DNA of 63,836 nucleotides from NCBI GenBank assembly GCA_003345595.1, contig PRDI01000110.1, forward strand, positions 1 through 63,836, read 5' to 3'. The DNA comes from Candidatus Thorarchaeota archaeon. Lineage in GTDB: Archaea; Asgardarchaeota; Thorarchaeia; Thorarchaeales; Thorarchaeaceae. The notes beneath the pieces are model-generated. The model was not told the origin of the DNA, did no database searches, and was given only the letters and a program-made list of their open reading frames with translations. The translations under genes and the position numbers were made by a program. Within the stretch, counting starts at the first letter, position 1, and each line of letters starts with the position of its first letter. This document shows positions 35,649 to 41,092 of the stretch, one piece after another.

Positions 35649-36014
35649 TTACACCTCCCCCCAACCCTCAAACCAAAGGTCCTCAATATCAGAAGCCTTA
35701 ATATTCGCCCTAACATACAAATACTTCCCTGAACAAATAGCTTCTCGTAGCTTCTCCGGTAAATCGCGCAAAGGCAAGATGATTTTTCTATCCTTATACC
35801 GTCCTGGAATGATGAATGAGAAATTCGCCGCCTGTTTATTAACTTCTATAACGTAGACACATATCCTATACAAACGCTTTGGACCTTCGTCATAATCGAA
35901 AGGGACAAGTCGATCACAATCAACATTCAATTTCTTCATCGCATCTCGAACCATCCAGACAACAACTACGGCAACAAAGACCAAAACAAAAATCACTCCA
36001 AAGTTCCTAAGCAT
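35649..36014 (-). CDS. Hypothetical membrane-anchored protein
   Basis: N-terminal hydrophobic segment; GGAGGAGG RBS. Confidence 0.55.
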   Translation of the reverse strand: MLRNFGVIFVLVFVAVVVVWMVRDAMKKLNVDCDRLVPFDYDEGPKRLYRICVYVIEVNKQAANFSFIIPGRYKDRKIILPLRDLPEKLREAICSGKYLYVRANIKASDIEDLWFEGWGEV

Positions 36015-36098
36015 AGCACCCTCCTCCCTCTAAGACTCAGTTGATATCACTTTCTTAAATGTGAAGCATAGCACCCTTCGATAACTTCCATAATAAAA

Positions 36099-37889
36099 CT
36101 ACAACTTTCTCAAAGAGTCCAAAAATTGCTCAGGTGACTGCTGGGCCAGAGTGTTCAACTCAGCCTGAGACATTGCTTGCCCCCCACCTATCGGTGTCAC
36201 AATCGCCTGCTGCGTGGGAGCTGCACCTTGCGCTGCCACCTGCGCGTAATAATCCAAGACTGATTCACTGGGGAGGAGTCTGCTTGCCTGGTTGCAATAC
36301 GTCTCAGCGAGCATAAAGTGGTCCGGCGAGTTCTCCTCCCACGAATAGTAGGACTTCTCAGGGTTGTTCTCGTTCACAACCAGGACACGCGTTGAAGCCT
36401 GCATCTGCGACCAGTATCGACCCCCAACTAAGACCTCCGATCCTTCTGGGTTCATCAAAGCATGCGCCTCGATCGCTGCTTTCAAGCTGTCGATAGCTGC
36501 CGTCCGGTCCTCATTCAGGACTCTGTCTTCTCGATTGATGCGAAACTCAAGCAGGGCGTGCTGGAAACGGGAGGAGAAAATATTCTTGAACTCCCCCTTC
36601 AAAGAAGCGATGTTGTGAATCTCGGGGTCAGCGTCGATAACGCATACTCGAGGATTCCACTCCCTAATCATGTCCTTGAGCAAGGTGAAGCTGGGAAGCT
36701 CCGTAGCCAAGACCAGACGACGGTTCAAAATCCCATGCTCATCTCTGATCCTCTCGCGTATCACCACGGTCAGCACATCGCCGACGTCCACGCCCATGAA
36801 CAACGGCCCGTGAACGGTGGTTCGATCAACTGGATATTGGTAAGGGATCTGGATGCCAGTGAGTAGACCGGAGGAGAACTTCGCACCTTCCGACGTGTAA
36901 GGAAGACCTAGGCGGGAATTGTAAAAGAACTCCTTCTTCAAAGGGTTCAGGAAGGACTCATCCCACACAGTAACAAGTTCTCGCATCGTCACCGTCGGGC
37001 TGACCGTCGGGGCGACGATCCGTCCTACCCACTCCCGCCCTGGATACTCCTCAACATACTCCCCCTTAGAAAAGCGATTGACTGGTCGGTTGCACTTCGG
37101 GCAAATCACTCGGGGCTCGTCAAACTCCCCGCACTTCTCGTCTCGGGGGATCCACTTCCTCTCCTCTACCTGCTTCATCACTGCCTCGAAGAAGCCGGGA
37201 AAGAAGCGATAATTGCAACCTTCACACTTGATCATCCAGTAGCCTTTCGTGCTCGTCTGGATCCGCCCATCAATACCCCTCCCCTCGATAGTTGGCGTCG
37301 AAATCTCCCGATGGAACTTATGTGGGCTGGCGGAATAGCGGTCTGGCAAAAGCAGAAGATTTCGCTGATTGCATCTATCTTTCTCGTCAACGAAGGCTGA
37401 GTCCACTGGAACCTCAACAAACTCATCTTCCACGTTAGAGCCGACATACAAGAGTTGCCCCTTACCAAACTGCTTCAGAGCAACTCGACTGGTTCCGGCT
37501 GCATCACTCATCATCCTTCCATAAGCTGGAACCCTGCGAATAACTGTATCCACGCGCGAGTTGACAAATCGATCTCGGCCTTTGTACTTCGGCAAGACGT
37601 ACATGACGATATATCCGAGTTCTGCTGCTTCGTAGAACGAGCCGACGATAAACAACTCAGATAAGCCATGCTGGACAGGTTTCATCACTGCTAACTTATG
37701 AAACTTGAGGAAATCGCGATACAAAGAAGCTAAATACCATCGATCTTTGAAAGACATCCGATCACCGCGAATGTTTCTATGATAATTTGTTGCCCAGTAC
37801 AATATTGGAGCTTTATCTTTCAAAAGCTCTTTCAAATCCACATCTTTCAAAGTAATTTGCTCAGCTAAATGTTGTACTTCATCCGGCAT
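36099..37889 (-). CDS. Terminase large subunit (gpA-like)
   Basis: MKPVQHGLSE (Walker A variant), FVDEKDR, ISTPT, CEGC/CPKC, MGVDVG, PDHF. Confidence 0.9.
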   Translation of the reverse strand: MPDEVQHLAEQITLKDVDLKELLKDKAPILYWATNYHRNIRGDRMSFKDRWYLASLYRDFLKFHKLAVMKPVQHGLSELFIVGSFYEAAELGYIVMYVLPKYKGRDRFVNSRVDTVIRRVPAYGRMMSDAAGTSRVALKQFGKGQLLYVGSNVEDEFVEVPVDSAFVDEKDRCNQRNLLLLPDRYSASPHKFHREISTPTIEGRGIDGRIQTSTKGYWMIKCEGCNYRFFPGFFEAVMKQVEERKWIPRDEKCGEFDEPRVICPKCNRPVNRFSKGEYVEEYPGREWVGRIVAPTVSPTVTMRELVTVWDESFLNPLKKEFFYNSRLGLPYTSEGAKFSSGLLTGIQIPYQYPVDRTTVHGPLFMGVDVGDVLTVVIRERIRDEHGILNRRLVLATELPSFTLLKDMIREWNPRVCVIDADPEIHNIASLKGEFKNIFSSRFQHALLEFRINREDRVLNEDRTAAIDSLKAAIEAHALMNPEGSEVLVGGRYWSQMQASTRVLVVNENNPEKSYYSWEENSPDHFMLAETYCNQASRLLPSESVLDYYAQVAAQGAAPTQQAIVTPIGGGQAMSQAELNTLAQQSPEQFLDSLRKL

Positions 37890-38103
37890 CTTCTACTCCT
37901 GCGAGGCACTCCCCAATAATCATGGAGTTACTTCTAAGTTCTCCCGAGTTACATTGGCTATCGGGAAAAACAGATCCAATCCCTACCTTAAATCGGCCTC
38001 TCCCAAATTCATCAAATCCAATAAAACGGCAAGGGCCGATAAGATCAAACGGATGATACCAGGTGTAATCATAGGGATTTATTCTCACCGAATTACTAAT
38101 CAC
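37879..38103 (-). CDS. Hypothetical protein
   Basis: AAGGAG RBS; AT-rich island. Confidence 0.5.
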   Translation of the reverse strand: MISNSVRINPYDYTWYHPFDLIGPCRFIGFDEFGRGRFKVGIGSVFPDSQCNSGELRSNSMIIGECLAGVEDAG

Positions 38104-38211
38104 AATTTACTCCTTTGCATTTCTCGTCGATACATTCTCAGCCTGACCCCCAATCAAATGCACAACTGTCTCCATGTGAGGCCATTGGTTTTCATACAAT
38201 CTTTCTCCTCT

Positions 38212-38275
38212 CGCAGATTATCTGTATACCTGACAACCGGCCTTTGTGGTTGTCAGGTCAAACTCGTTGTCAAAT
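38212..38275 (-). mobile_element. attC-like site C (degenerate R')
   Basis: ATTTGAC directly after the stop codon; 11-bp stem ACCTGACAACC/GGTTGTCAGGT shares its core with site B. Confidence 0.4.
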
Positions 38276-38653
38276 TCATATCCTTTTCATGTGATATAAT
38301 TTAACTTCTTTTGCATCAGCAGTAGTCAACCCGTCTACCCCTACAAGCCTATCTATACAATCTGGAATTGTCATCCCTGTTTCATTACAGATTATTTCTA
38401 CTGCATCTGCGATATGGACAATTCTAATTAATTTCTTTACGTGCATACATCCTCCACAATCCGAAGTCTTAGTAACAAGCGAAGTAGTTGTTCTACGCCC
38501 CGGCGCATTAATACATGTAAACCATGAGGCTTTCCAGATATTCCAAAACTGCCCCATACGGATAGTGTCGGAGAGTGGGTTCATACCAACACTTCGCATA
38601 TATTTTTCAAATGCTTCAATACATTCTTTTTCAATTTCAATCCCATCTTCCAT
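38276..38653 (-). CDS. Hypothetical protein (cassette-like)
   Basis: MEDGIEIE start with GAGG RBS; bounded by attC-like sites. Confidence 0.6.
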   Translation of the reverse strand: MEDGIEIEKECIEAFEKYMRSVGMNPLSDTIRMGQFWNIWKASWFTCINAPGRRTTTSLVTKTSDCGGCMHVKKLIRIVHIADAVEIICNETGMTIPDCIDRLVGVDGLTTADAKEVKLYHMKRI

Positions 38654-38673
38654 AACAACCTCTACCCAGGCCC

Positions 38674-38734
38674 ATATAACATTTAGATAACCTGACAACG
38701 CGCAAGCATTGTCAGATTGATTCAGTTGTTAGAC
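38674..38734 (-). mobile_element. attC-like site B (61 bp)
   Basis: GTCTAAC-AACTG-AATCAATC...GGTTATC-TAAAT-GTTATAT; extra C at position 4 of L''; the upstream gene's TAA lies inside R''. Confidence 0.6.
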
Positions 38735-38893
38735 TCTCTTTACCTGCGAAACTCTCTCAAGTTCTTTGTCAGTACAATCCAACATAAGCTTTTTACCAAG
38801 TCGGCGAAGGGCTTTTGGTGCGCGTTCAGCGCCATTGGAGATAGACCGTACTCCATTCGGATTCGACTGTGACTTGCTCTTTCCGTGTGCCAT
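38729..38893 (-). CDS. 54-aa basic protein (cassette-like, not in ORF track)
   Basis: AAGGAG RBS; MAHGKSKSQSNPNG...VSQVKRV; stop inside the attC-like R''. Confidence 0.55.
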   Translation of the reverse strand: MAHGKSKSQSNPNGVRSISNGAERAPKALRRLGKKLMLDCTDKELERVSQVKRV

Positions 38894-38926
38894 ATTTCTC
38901 TCCTTGCAAATTATCCGCCGTGATTG

Positions 38927-39211
38927 TCAGCCTAACATTGACTTGCAACTGCTACACGGCGTAGCAAATTCATCAAGTTTTGTCACTGTGGACATTTTGC
39001 ATTGTCCTACACTGGTAGTTGTCGAGTTGAAATCTGTGTTGGATATGGCATGATCTTCAAACATCTTAAGAAGCGCTTGTTTTATTCCTATTCCATGCCT
39101 GCTCTTTTTAACACAAGCAGGGCTGCAATAAAAAAATATCTTTTCCCTGAAAATAGTTATTGTGACTTTTGCACCTTTTTCTGACTCTTTACCGCAAACT
39201 GTGCATTTCAT
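38927..39211 (-). CDS. TRASH/YHS-like zinc-binding small protein that reads through the attC-like site
   Basis: CTVCG...FFYCSPAC; GGAGGAG RBS. Confidence 0.55.
   Translation of the reverse strand: MKCTVCGKESEKGAKVTITIFREKIFFYCSPACVKKSRHGIGIKQALLKMFEDHAISNTDFNSTTTSVGQCKMSTVTKLDEFATPCSSCKSMLG
38930..39044 (-). mobile_element. attC-like site A (115 bp)
   Basis: ATCCAAC (RYYYAAC)-ACAGA-TTTCAACT...AGTTGCAA-GTCAAT-GTTAGGC (GTTRRRY). Confidence 0.55.
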
Positions 39212-39241
39212 CTTCTCCTCCTACGAAGAAACTCCGGTGGA

Positions 39242-39727
39242 CTACTCAAGGACACTCTTAGAATCTTCAAAGCATTGATTCTCCTTGTCCATCTCAGCCA
39301 AGATCTGCATCTGCACCTCGTCGACGAACTGCTGAAAATACTCATCAATAGCCTTCCAGACAATCGGCACACCCTGAATCTGACTACGATTCTTAATGAT
39401 ATTTTGACGGCAGAAGATCCAGGCTTCCACGGCGATACTAAGAGAGTACTTCTTAATCACTTTCAAGCCAAGCTTGCGACTCCTGATAACGATTTGTTGT
39501 TTCCAGTCGTCAAAAAGCTTCATAATGATCTCCTCAGTAACCGGGGAGCAAATAACTTCTCCATCGGCGATGCCTTCATTAACACGGTACTCGTCAAAAC
39601 GCTTCTTAGCCTCGGCAAAAACCTCGGAAGACAACGCGTAGATCGGCTGGAGAAGGTCTTTAATTGCCTCTTGGACCTTGAGCAATCGCTTCCTCGCTTG
39701 GTTCTTCTTCAAACTTTTCCTGTCCAT
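39242..39727 (-). CDS. Hypothetical protein
   Basis: GGAGG RBS before MDRKS. Confidence 0.6.
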   Translation of the reverse strand: MDRKSLKKNQARKRLLKVQEAIKDLLQPIYALSSEVFAEAKKRFDEYRVNEGIADGEVICSPVTEEIIMKLFDDWKQQIVIRSRKLGLKVIKKYSLSIAVEAWIFCRQNIIKNRSQIQGVPIVWKAIDEYFQQFVDEVQMQILAEMDKENQCFEDSKSVLE

Positions 39728-40452
39728 TCTGTTCCTCCTGACCGTCTTTCTTGCCACACTTGTTTCATCTTAATAGAAATCTTGTCTTTGATTTCTTTAG
39801 ATTGTGTCCTACCTACATGTTGCCCAGCATACTCAGGTAACTTTCGCCCTTTCATTTTTCTACGCTGTTGTTCTTTTTGTTCTTCGGTTCGTATCTTTCC
39901 TTTATTTGCAATCCCAATCTTTCTTCGTGTCTCATCAGATGTTATATGTCCCTTAAGAGATTTTGCTCTTTTCTGTACAACTTCATTGGGTTGTTTTCTT
40001 CCTCTCAAAATAGTACTCATTTTCTTTCCATATTCTTCGGGGTAAATACGTCCCTTATTTGCAACACTAATTTTCTGTCTTGTCTCAATGGATGTTATAT
40101 GCCCTTCAAGAGCTGCTCCTATTTTTCTTTTCGTTTCTCCTGACAATTTATTTCCTGCTGTATTTCCATCTCCACCCATCGTCAAATTATAACCAAACTG
40201 GGGATCAAACGACTTATAGAACTGGATCCAGTACTTTTCCTTCTCGTTAAGTTCTTGTTTGGACTCAGCTTGATCAATCACTTGCCAGTCAAAGTTCCCG
40301 ACGCCATACTTTCGAAGAGCATTATGAAAATAAACTCTACTCCCTCGCTTTGCATCATACAAATGATAATACTTACGCGCATTCAACGACATACATGTTT
40401 TCCCGATATAAAGCATACCAGTACAATAACAAATAACTTTATATATTATCAT
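39709..40452 (-). mobile_element. GIY-YIG homing endonuclease with NUMOD3 repeats
   Basis: IIYKV..LYIGKT..R..H; GYNLTMGGDG; repeated (H)xSxETRxKIS; AT-rich. Confidence 0.9.
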
Positions 40453-41092
40453 TATTTTCTACCTTGTCATTAACATCTGACTCTACAGGTTCCGGTTCTA
40501 CTATTACTAAGTCCTCCAAAAGGGCCATCTCGTCTAGCCTGTCGCGCAGTTTCTTGATATCTAGACTCGTCTCAACCTTGGCTGCTGCCTTAGCCTCACC
40601 GCCCAATGCACTTGTGGAGGCTACGGCCCTGGCCTCCGCAGTCACCCTCAAGTTGAGGGTTCCTTCAACATCGACACCCAGGACATTCATAATTGTCTTC
40701 CTGATGACATCAGCATTCTTATCCGTGATATCCATATCTAAGAGCTCATACAACTTCTGGAAAGCTTTCGTCTCGAGAAGCTTCATCCTCTCCATCAAAA
40801 CGAGATTCTGCTTCCGCCGAATAATTAAATAATACTTAAGAATCTTCGGGTTCTTCTTCCACTCGGCAATCCGTGTATCACTGACATGGAAAATCCTCCC
40901 CCAGTCAGCGTTCGTCCTGAACTCCGTAGCCCATCGGAAGGCAAACATCCGATGCTTCTCAGGAAGAAGAGGGAGCTCAGGGTCGTCTTGGGAGTAAACG
41001 GACGCGAAAATCTTCTCCATCTTCTCCCTGAAAACTGGTGTCGTATCCGGCGGCTGATCCAGCGGGGTCAAGTCTTTGCTCTCTGCCATCAC
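40439..41092 (-). CDS. Probable terminase small subunit (HTH)
   Basis: HTH-like RIFHVSDTRIAEWKKNP followed by helical AFQKLYELLD; upstream of TerL. Confidence 0.55.
   Translation of the reverse strand: MMAESKDLTPLDQPPDTTPVFREKMEKIFASVYSQDDPELPLLPEKHRMFAFRWATEFRTNADWGRIFHVSDTRIAEWKKNPKILKYYLIIRRKQNLVLMERMKLLETKAFQKLYELLDMDITDKNADVIRKTIMNVLGVDVEGTLNLRVTAEARAVASTSALGGEAKAAAKVETSLDIKKLRDRLDEMALLEDLVIVEPEPVESDVNDKVENNDNI

Follow-up and report, generated by a model that had tools for sequence, protein, structure and literature searches.

An integron-type attC site and two putative relics in a small-gene island of a tailed-phage contig

The attC sites of integron cassettes act as single-stranded DNA: each folds into an imperfect hairpin in which the R''/R' and L''/L' boxes are paired, the spacer is unpaired, and some bases are bulged. 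An IntI-type tyrosine recombinase cuts the site between G and TT (G↓TT), releases circular cassettes, and inserts them at other places. Because the TTRRRY behind a site in an integron array is part of the following cassette, it is expected to pair with the R'' of that same cassette. Repeated intergenic motifs also flank exchanged accessory genes in other systems, such as the PeSL (early promoter plus stem-loop) cassettes of T4-type phages and the boundary sequences of lambdoid phages. Here, we describe a small-gene island next to the TerL gene in contig PRDI01000110.1 (assembly GCA_003345595.1, Candidatus Thorarchaeota archaeon), where three imperfect palindromes, sites A, B, and C, stand at the 3' ends of the genes P0001, P0002, and P0003, respectively. 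The window is the whole contig, 63,836 nt in length.

Clustered attC sites without an integron integrase (CALINs) and single attC sites have been described in phages, with 17 CALINs in 10,705 genomes, a number that made them look rare; five of the six phage attC sites tested were recombined by IntI1 (Qi, Rajabal, Ghaly, Tetu, and Gillings, 2023; PMC9892861). In archaeal metagenome-assembled genomes (MAGs), integrons and CALINs are enriched in Asgard lineages and are mostly integrase-less attC clusters (Ghaly et al., 2022; PMC9668308). For single sites, Loot and co-workers proposed cassette insertion at non-att genomic sites, together with attC decay by replication slippage (bioRxiv 10.1101/2022.09.11.507474).

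Our reading, to which we give a probability of about 0.78, is that the island is a short, partly decayed integron-type cassette array without integrase, whose cassettes were drawn from one pool with a conserved attC family. The integron-type interpretation of the sites and cassettes is supported by three independent tests: (i) a covariance model built from class 1 attC sites, (ii) the pairing of R' and R'' boxes of adjacent sites, and (iii) the recurrence of the P0002 cassette in another array.

Sites A, B, and C and the attC family

Site B is an integron-type attC. Read on the minus strand, it starts with R'' GTCTAAC (38734-38728), an exact RYYYAAC that encloses the TAA codon of P0002 (38731-38729), and continues with the spacer AACTG, L'' AATCAATCTGAC, a terminal stem-loop, L' GTCAGGTTATC, the spacer TAAAT, and R' GTTATAT (38680-38674), which agrees with GTTRRRY at six of seven positions. 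Both spacers are 5 nt long, and L'' carries an unpaired C. Standard pairs occupy 19 of the 21 modelled positions, and the second base that is usually bulged, the A of GAC, is paired. Compared with shuffled sequences, the folding of the site has z-scores from -2.8 to -2.95.

To compare site B with canonical sites, a covariance model (R1) was built from class 1 attC sites only, namely those of aadA1, aadA2, qacH, psp, gcuF, and aadB, taken from R100, a P1 phage-plasmid, a Salmonella island, and an Enterobacter plasmid. R1 was limited to these six 60-nt sites because a box-and-fold heuristic missed the attC sites of cmlA1, estX, ereA2, arr, and aac(6')-Ib, and because MAFFT misaligned the right arms of 70-nt and 90-nt sites. 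The same heuristic yielded one site only when applied to the Vibrio anguillarum chromosomal attC sites in phage MK672802. The window and three sister contigs were searched with R1 with filters off. Site B is the top match in the window (21.7 bits, E-value 8e-4, aligned end-to-end), and the score is strand-specific, the opposite strand reaching 11.2 bits. The site at positions 871-925 of contig L066 obtained 32.3 bits (E-value 3e-7) with all 21 pairs standard, and it folds as a textbook attC (z-score -6.1); the site of contig L069 obtained 14.3 bits. The likeness to class 1 attC reaches the primary sequence, the two bulged bases, and the spacer lengths.

Site B belongs to an attC family whose core, CTTCAACCTGAC ... 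GCAGGTTAAGCAAATGTT, is nearly invariant, its invariant columns being partly fixed by the search pattern used. The core pattern matches 66 stretches in IMG/VR, several of them with two or three sites, and 20 GTDB species genomes; the genomes extend from Desulfobacterota to Saccharibacteria and a methanotrophic archaeon and include Desulfosarcina, Treponema, Saccharibacteria, Chloroflexota, Lamprocystis purpurea DSM 4197, and a Methanoperedens MAG. A text search of the literature found the core motif in no paper. A second covariance model (R2) was built from 44 family sites with the window left out, and its sole significant match in the window is site B (47.1 bits, E-value 6.7e-10). The family contains 44 distinct terminal stems, and at the three innermost modelled pairs changes on both sides are observed in 5, 10, and 15 sequences. 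An open frame on the same strand ends at 77 of the 93 family sites, the commonest form being a TAA inside R''.

The top-scoring attC of the family (R1 32 bits, R2 73 bits) ends a gene for a D12-class adenine methyltransferase (L066, 187-925). The cultured Lamprocystis purpurea DSM 4197 has a family attC on one of its scaffolds, and another lies on the Methanoperedens MAG contig (L164, L168). In Desulfosarcina, Desulfamplus, and a Treponemataceae chromosome, single family sites are located within Mb-scale contigs (L153, L159, L166). No IntI was found within the 8-kb loci around any of these five.

The other two palindromes of the island are, judging by homology, relics of the family of site B rather than independent hairpins. 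Site A is most likely the pair of R'' ATCCAAC (39044-39038) and R' GTTAGGC (38936-38930), both exact to consensus, which span 115 nt; the region has no second exact RYYYAAC...GTTRRRY pair. Homologues of site A are the 107-nt attC belonging to the P0009 cassette (L065-L070), itself scored at 12.5 bits by R1, and, in the unrelated AT-rich phage contig L008, the attC that follows P0008 (26.7 bits with R2). Site A retains both boxes and the right arm; its L boxes are weakened, its stem has been lost, and it has no match with R1 or R2. Site C consists of an R''-like ATTTGAC (38275-38269; six of seven positions, with AAC changed to GAC), the spacer AACGA, L'' GTTTGACCTGAC, and an L'-like GTCAGGTATAC; its R' box has been lost. 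Its hairpin (38258-38228) has a perfect 11-bp stem with z-scores from -4.3 to -5.5, and its left half is identical to the third attC of contig L173 at 23 of 28 positions by a hand count on the alignment. The model scores of site C are non-significant (R1 10.5 bits, E-value 3.5; R2 12.3 bits).

The motif CTGACAA-N-TTGTCAG occurs twice in the 63.8 kb, both times in the island, against an expected 0.01. A reading of the sites as a private hairpin repeat (CCTGACAAC...GTTGTCAGG) was dropped: a scan of IMG/VR for this hairpin gave 43 stretches, 33 of which represent one conserved 33-nt hairpin of a single viral-contig family, and the other matches were scattered and at chance level. An unrelated 107-kb viral contig contains three tandem copies of short hairpins of the GTGACAACGTGGTTGTCAC and CCTGACAACGTGGTTGTCAGG types (L043, 3010-3110).

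The original prediction for this locus, made from the sequence alone, had described three related palindromes at the 3' ends of small genes in an AT-rich island between TerS and TerL. This description is confirmed except for the label TerS, which is positional only. The 61-bp site B was matched base for base, including its GTCTAAC and GTTATAT ends, the 5-nt spacer, the unpaired C in L'', and the TAA inside R'', and attC covariance models, a type of check proposed there, recognize it (21.7 bits with R1, 47.1 bits with R2). The exact ends ascribed to site A are most likely those of the ATCCAAC/GTTAGGC pair, and site C is degenerate, as had been stated.

Cassette boundaries and cassette genes

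If cassettes of the family were once exchanged as circles, the R' box after one site should carry the start of the next cassette. Perfect complementarity (7/7) between the R' box of a site and the R'' box of the following one was observed in 6 of 13 adjacent family pairs, and 6/7 complementarity in two more; at least four of the six perfect pairs are distinct cassettes. By comparison, 7/7 complementarity is found in 6.9% of random pairs and in 5 of 80 pairs of boxes from the same site. The adjacent pairs in contig L173 are complementary at 7/7 and 6/7 positions. In the window, R' of site A (GTTAGGC) and R'' of site B (GTCTAAC) are complementary at 6/7. For such complementarity to arise, a circular cassette must once have crossed over at G↓TT; homologous recombination can maintain it but not bring it about. 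Thus, the family bears the G↓TT cassette signature.

As a side observation, at 10 of 89 distinct cassette 5' ends (L087-L173), a perfect mini-palindrome xxTAAC-AA/TT-GTTAxx is present 12-14 nt after R'; it consists of two R-box halves back to back and occurs at none of 84 upstream controls. The third cassette of L173 has the mini-palindrome, and the P0002 cassette of the window lost it via a 15-nt gap.

The P0002 cassette is complete. It starts with TTAGGC after the G of R' of site A, continues with a short leader with a ribosome-binding site and the P0002 gene, and ends at the G of R' of site B. The sole homologue of P0002 (80% amino-acid identity) is encoded in the third cassette of the L173 array. 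The two cassettes are 80% identical at the nucleotide level from a shared TTAGGCTGACAA start through the gene into the attC, their 3' ends not being comparable as the L173 contig stops inside its third attC. Both copies begin at G↓TTAGGC. Their upstream neighbours are different: a 55-aa gene with a 69-bit attC in L173 and P0001 in the window. This alignment shows the same cassette reused in another context.

P0001 is cassette cargo as well. It has a zinc-ribbon-like CxxC...CxxxC pattern, and over residues 1-56 it shares 77-79% identity with P0008 and P0009 on other contigs. After codon 56, a 1-nt deletion relative to P0008 and P0009 (GCCAT-ATCCAAC, 39038-39050, minus strand) shifts the frame, and the last 38 codons read out of frame through the old attC. 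Homologues of P0001 sit in small-gene arrays with family attC sites, and the intergenic sites around P0009 resemble site B in layout as well as in sequence. The neighbours of P0009 vary by contig, being an SLT gene, a D12 methylase gene, or other small open reading frames (ORFs), and the agreement between L065 and L066 upstream of P0009 starts at G↓TTGGAT.

A different kind of junction was seen in one pair of contigs (L069, 632-743, and L070, 676-712). After the same 66-aa gene, a full attC is present in one contig only. In the other, the site breaks off within L'' (CTTCAAC↓TGGCACGG), where another gene takes over; the junction falls at a secondary AAC and not at an R box.

The remaining genes are less informative. 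P0003 is an orphan, finding only itself among 5.8 billion clustered proteins and in IMG/VR. P0003 and P0004 belong to no Pfam or PHROG family, and P0005 has no family match.

Gene order and the mosaic block

The window represents a complete contig of a 2.7-Mb, 83%-complete bin and reads as a tailed-phage genome with all genes on the minus strand (Table 1). The cassette island is AT-rich, with a GC content of 0.40-0.43 compared with about 0.52-0.55 in the flanks, and the low-GC stretch spans roughly 37500-40500.

Table 1. Features of the island and its surroundings (positions in the window)
Feature	Position	Strand	Remark
217-aa gene	41092-40439	minus	conserved
Low-GC mosaic block	37890..40630	minus	no DNA counterpart in relatives; blastn breakpoints
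GIY-YIG/NUMOD3 homing endonuclease	40452-39709	minus	free-standing; overlaps the 217-aa gene and the TerS-position gene
TerS-position gene	39757-39242	minus	
P0001	39211-38927	minus	94 aa, zinc-ribbon-like
Site A	38930..39044	minus	long, decayed attC at the P0001 3' end; exact boxes, homology
P0002 cassette	38680..38935	minus	complete, 256 nt; TTAGGC start to G of site B R'
P0002	38893-38729	minus	54 aa
Site B	38674..38734	minus	61-nt integron-type attC; R1 and R2 models, fold
P0003	38653-38276	minus	125 aa
Site C	38224..38275	minus	truncated putative attC relic after P0003; partial homology, hairpin
Doubtful mini-ORF	between P0003 and P0004	minus	30 codons
P0004	38103-37879	minus	74 aa; last island gene, overlaps the TerL start
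TerL	37889-36099	minus	gpA-type large terminase

Relatives of the phage were collected by a TerL search in IMG/VR and metagenomes, and five distinct contigs keep the upstream sequence (L001/L009, L002/L016, L010, L012, and L005/L014). A search of GTDB species genomes with TerL gave no relative. In all five contigs, the 217-aa gene, the TerS-position gene, and TerL are contiguous, and the homing endonuclease and the small genes are absent. Blastn breakpoints were determined against L001/L009, L002/L016, L010, and L012: DNA homology to the relatives ends near 40630 and resumes at the TerL start, at 37884-37890. A blastn search of 50,697 phage records gave only a weak match, to a homing-endonuclease gene.

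The intervening block contains the tail of the 217-aa gene, the endonuclease gene, a diverged TerS-position gene, and the cassette island. Between the window and L001, the TerS-position gene shows 36% identity, compared with 74-79% for the flanking genes; across the relatives, the respective values are 34-44% for this gene and 57-79% for the neighbouring genes on both sides. It looks as though the gene was replaced or co-converted. The product matches no Pfam or PHROG family, and what is conserved in the relatives is only its place directly before TerL, so the name TerS reflects position alone. Because of the homology breakpoints and the diverged TerS-position gene, 37890-40630 as a whole is a foreign low-GC mosaic block. 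Its left edge bears no att-type junction, and the diverged gene and the endonuclease were co-transferred, which suggests that the array was acquired by ordinary phage-phage recombination. Thus, the array probably arrived by this route and is now decaying.

Integron and other tyrosine recombinases were sought at several levels. No PF00589 domain was detected in the window, in agreement with the original prediction, or in the whole bin. No integrase was detected in the extra 3.5 kb of a longer, 67-kb copy of the contig, and no tyrosine recombinase in five viral records that are related, of which two are complete and have direct terminal repeats. A tblastn search with IntI1 and a Vibrio IntIA produced no match in any fetched locus.

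Alternative explanations and known systems

Several observations weigh against an integron-type array. Only one of the three sites passes R1 or R2; site A folds no better than shuffled sequences (z-score 0.14), and site C lacks R', having no GTT box. Even site B deviates from the standard: its R' is one position off GTTRRRY, non-standard pairs occupy 2 of the 21 modelled positions, and of the usual two bulged bases only one is left. R1 is narrow, being built from six similar 60-nt sites with an effective number of 2.5, and its E-values are rough. The left edge of the island is not an att-like junction. Finally, no integron integrase was detected in the window, the bin, the longer contig, the related records, or the fetched loci.

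One alternative explanation is that the attC cores now serve only as homology patches, and phages swap small genes by homologous recombination at the ~30-nt core, much as T4-type phages do at PeSL motifs and lambdoid phages at their boundary sequences, with no integrase acting on phage DNA at present. The near-invariant core of the family would be ideal for such exchange, and two complete phage genomes with these sites have direct terminal repeats and no tyrosine recombinase. The non-att edges of the block and its arrival with a diverged neighbour gene fit the same scheme, as do junctions that lie inside L'' and not at G↓TT (L070 compared with L069). However, a 5' TTRRRY complementary to the cassette's own R'' arises only via a G↓TT crossover in a circle, the class 1 likeness extends to bulges and spacer lengths, and similar phage attC sites were recombined by IntI1 in published work (PMC9892861). 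We regard exchange through homology patches only as rather unlikely. Placement of the island by the GIY-YIG homing endonuclease, with co-conversion and with the small genes as passengers, is improbable. Such an event would agree with the absence of the GIY-YIG/NUMOD3 gene (40452-39709) from the relatives, with the strong divergence of the adjacent TerS-position gene, which is expected of co-conversion tracts, and with the single low GC level over the whole block. It accounts for the spread of the block between related phages, but not for the cassette anatomy, the attC family, or the G↓TT boundaries, and P0002 and P0001 are reused in unrelated contexts without the endonuclease.

The palindromes could also be elements acting at the RNA level, such as terminators, processing sites, or stabilising stem-loops, with a coincidental likeness to attC. 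Their location at gene 3' ends on the coding strand would suit this role, hairpins A-C share the stem CTGACAA/TTGTCAG, and attC sites are thought to terminate weakly (PMC9892861). Against this, none of the three sites is followed by a T-run on the coding strand, a terminator scan lists none of them, terminators and promoters being at background, and there is no relevant Rfam match (E-value up to 10, positions 36000-41000). An RNA element would also leave unexplained the strand-specific score obtained with a model of bacterial integron sites, and would give no reason for R' to pair with R'' of the next site. This explanation seems to us very improbable.

Under the preferred integron-type reading, each cassette of the island would comprise one small gene with a short leader before it and an attC behind it. 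Cassettes would be drawn from a pool marked by one attC family and present on many integrase-less phage contigs and in many phyla, and the recombinase would be supplied in trans by a host. The array would have reached the phage inside the larger low-GC block by phage-phage recombination. By now most of it would be a relic, with recombination still possible at site B alone.

In the classification of such loci, a CALIN needs two or more attC sites with model support, separated by less than 4 kb, and the window has one by both R1 and R2. The original prediction of a CALIN-like array is thus right as to the integron-type attC and cassettes, but with only one model-supported site the window is formally a single attC lacking an integrase (SALIN) plus two relics. 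The same prediction had the phage acquiring or shuffling accessory genes through an IntI-like recombinase. In this phage, the array was probably gained by ordinary recombination, and shuffling by an IntI at the present day is something we only infer. In the proposed comparison of the locus in relatives, gene content differs: the whole block is absent from the five relatives, and its edges are not att.

Taken by itself, the window gives a modest result: it has a single intact site next to two relics, and all three were probably inherited together in one block. A broader and tentative suggestion, which we consider possible but doubtful, is that the nearly invariant attC family marks a cross-phyla cassette pool carried mainly by integrase-less tailed phages of anoxic habitats. 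If so, phages would rank among the main stores and carriers of integron cassettes, would rely on any host IntI that they encounter, and would move and store cassettes far beyond what cultured-phage databases suggest. Some integrase-less attC clusters in MAGs, including those in Asgard and other archaeal bins, could then lie on phage contigs. The family provides ready test material, with short sites and defined cassettes such as that of the D12 methylase.

The closest canonical counterparts of the family are the aadA1-type class 1 attC sites, or 59-base elements. They have in common a 7-nt R'', a 5-nt spacer, and a 12-nt L'' with bulged C and A, followed in the same order by the terminal stem, L', the spacer, and R'. 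The primary sequences are also related, with GTTCAAGCCGAC in class 1 sites corresponding to CTTCAACCTGAC in the family, and CGGCTTAAC to CAGGTTAAG. Site B differs from class 1 sites in the absence of the second bulged base and in the one base of R' that is off consensus. Unlike class 1 integrons, the window has no attI, Pc promoter, or intI, and its cargo consists of phage genes without assigned function and not of resistance genes.

Among loci without integrase, SALINs ascribed to insertion at attG sites (bioRxiv 10.1101/2022.09.11.507474) similarly present a single recognisable attC far from an integrase. In contrast to them, site B has two decayed neighbours of the same family and its carrier is a phage; because of these neighbours, it is likelier that an array is shrinking than that a cassette was inserted alone. 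The PeSL cassettes and lambdoid boundaries also combine small accessory genes with repeated intergenic motifs that mark exchange points. Here, unlike in PeSL, the motif consists of attC boxes, the sites show no sigma-70-like match on the coding strand, and promoters are as numerous as in shuffled sequences. The CALINs of archaeal MAGs (PMC9668308) differ in that the carrier of our island is plainly a tailed-phage contig, its link to an archaeal host resting on binning; they are similar in that this contig falls in a Thorarchaeota bin and the family is also found on a Methanoperedens MAG contig (L168).

Phage CALINs (PMC9892861) are a further close system. The window departs from them in having one model-supported site and two relics, all of a single sequence-conserved family seen in 66 IMG/VR stretches. 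The shared features are small-gene cassettes bounded by attC, the lack of an integron integrase, the gene-then-attC orientation, and DNA methyltransferase cargo, which in our case is found in the sister array of L066.

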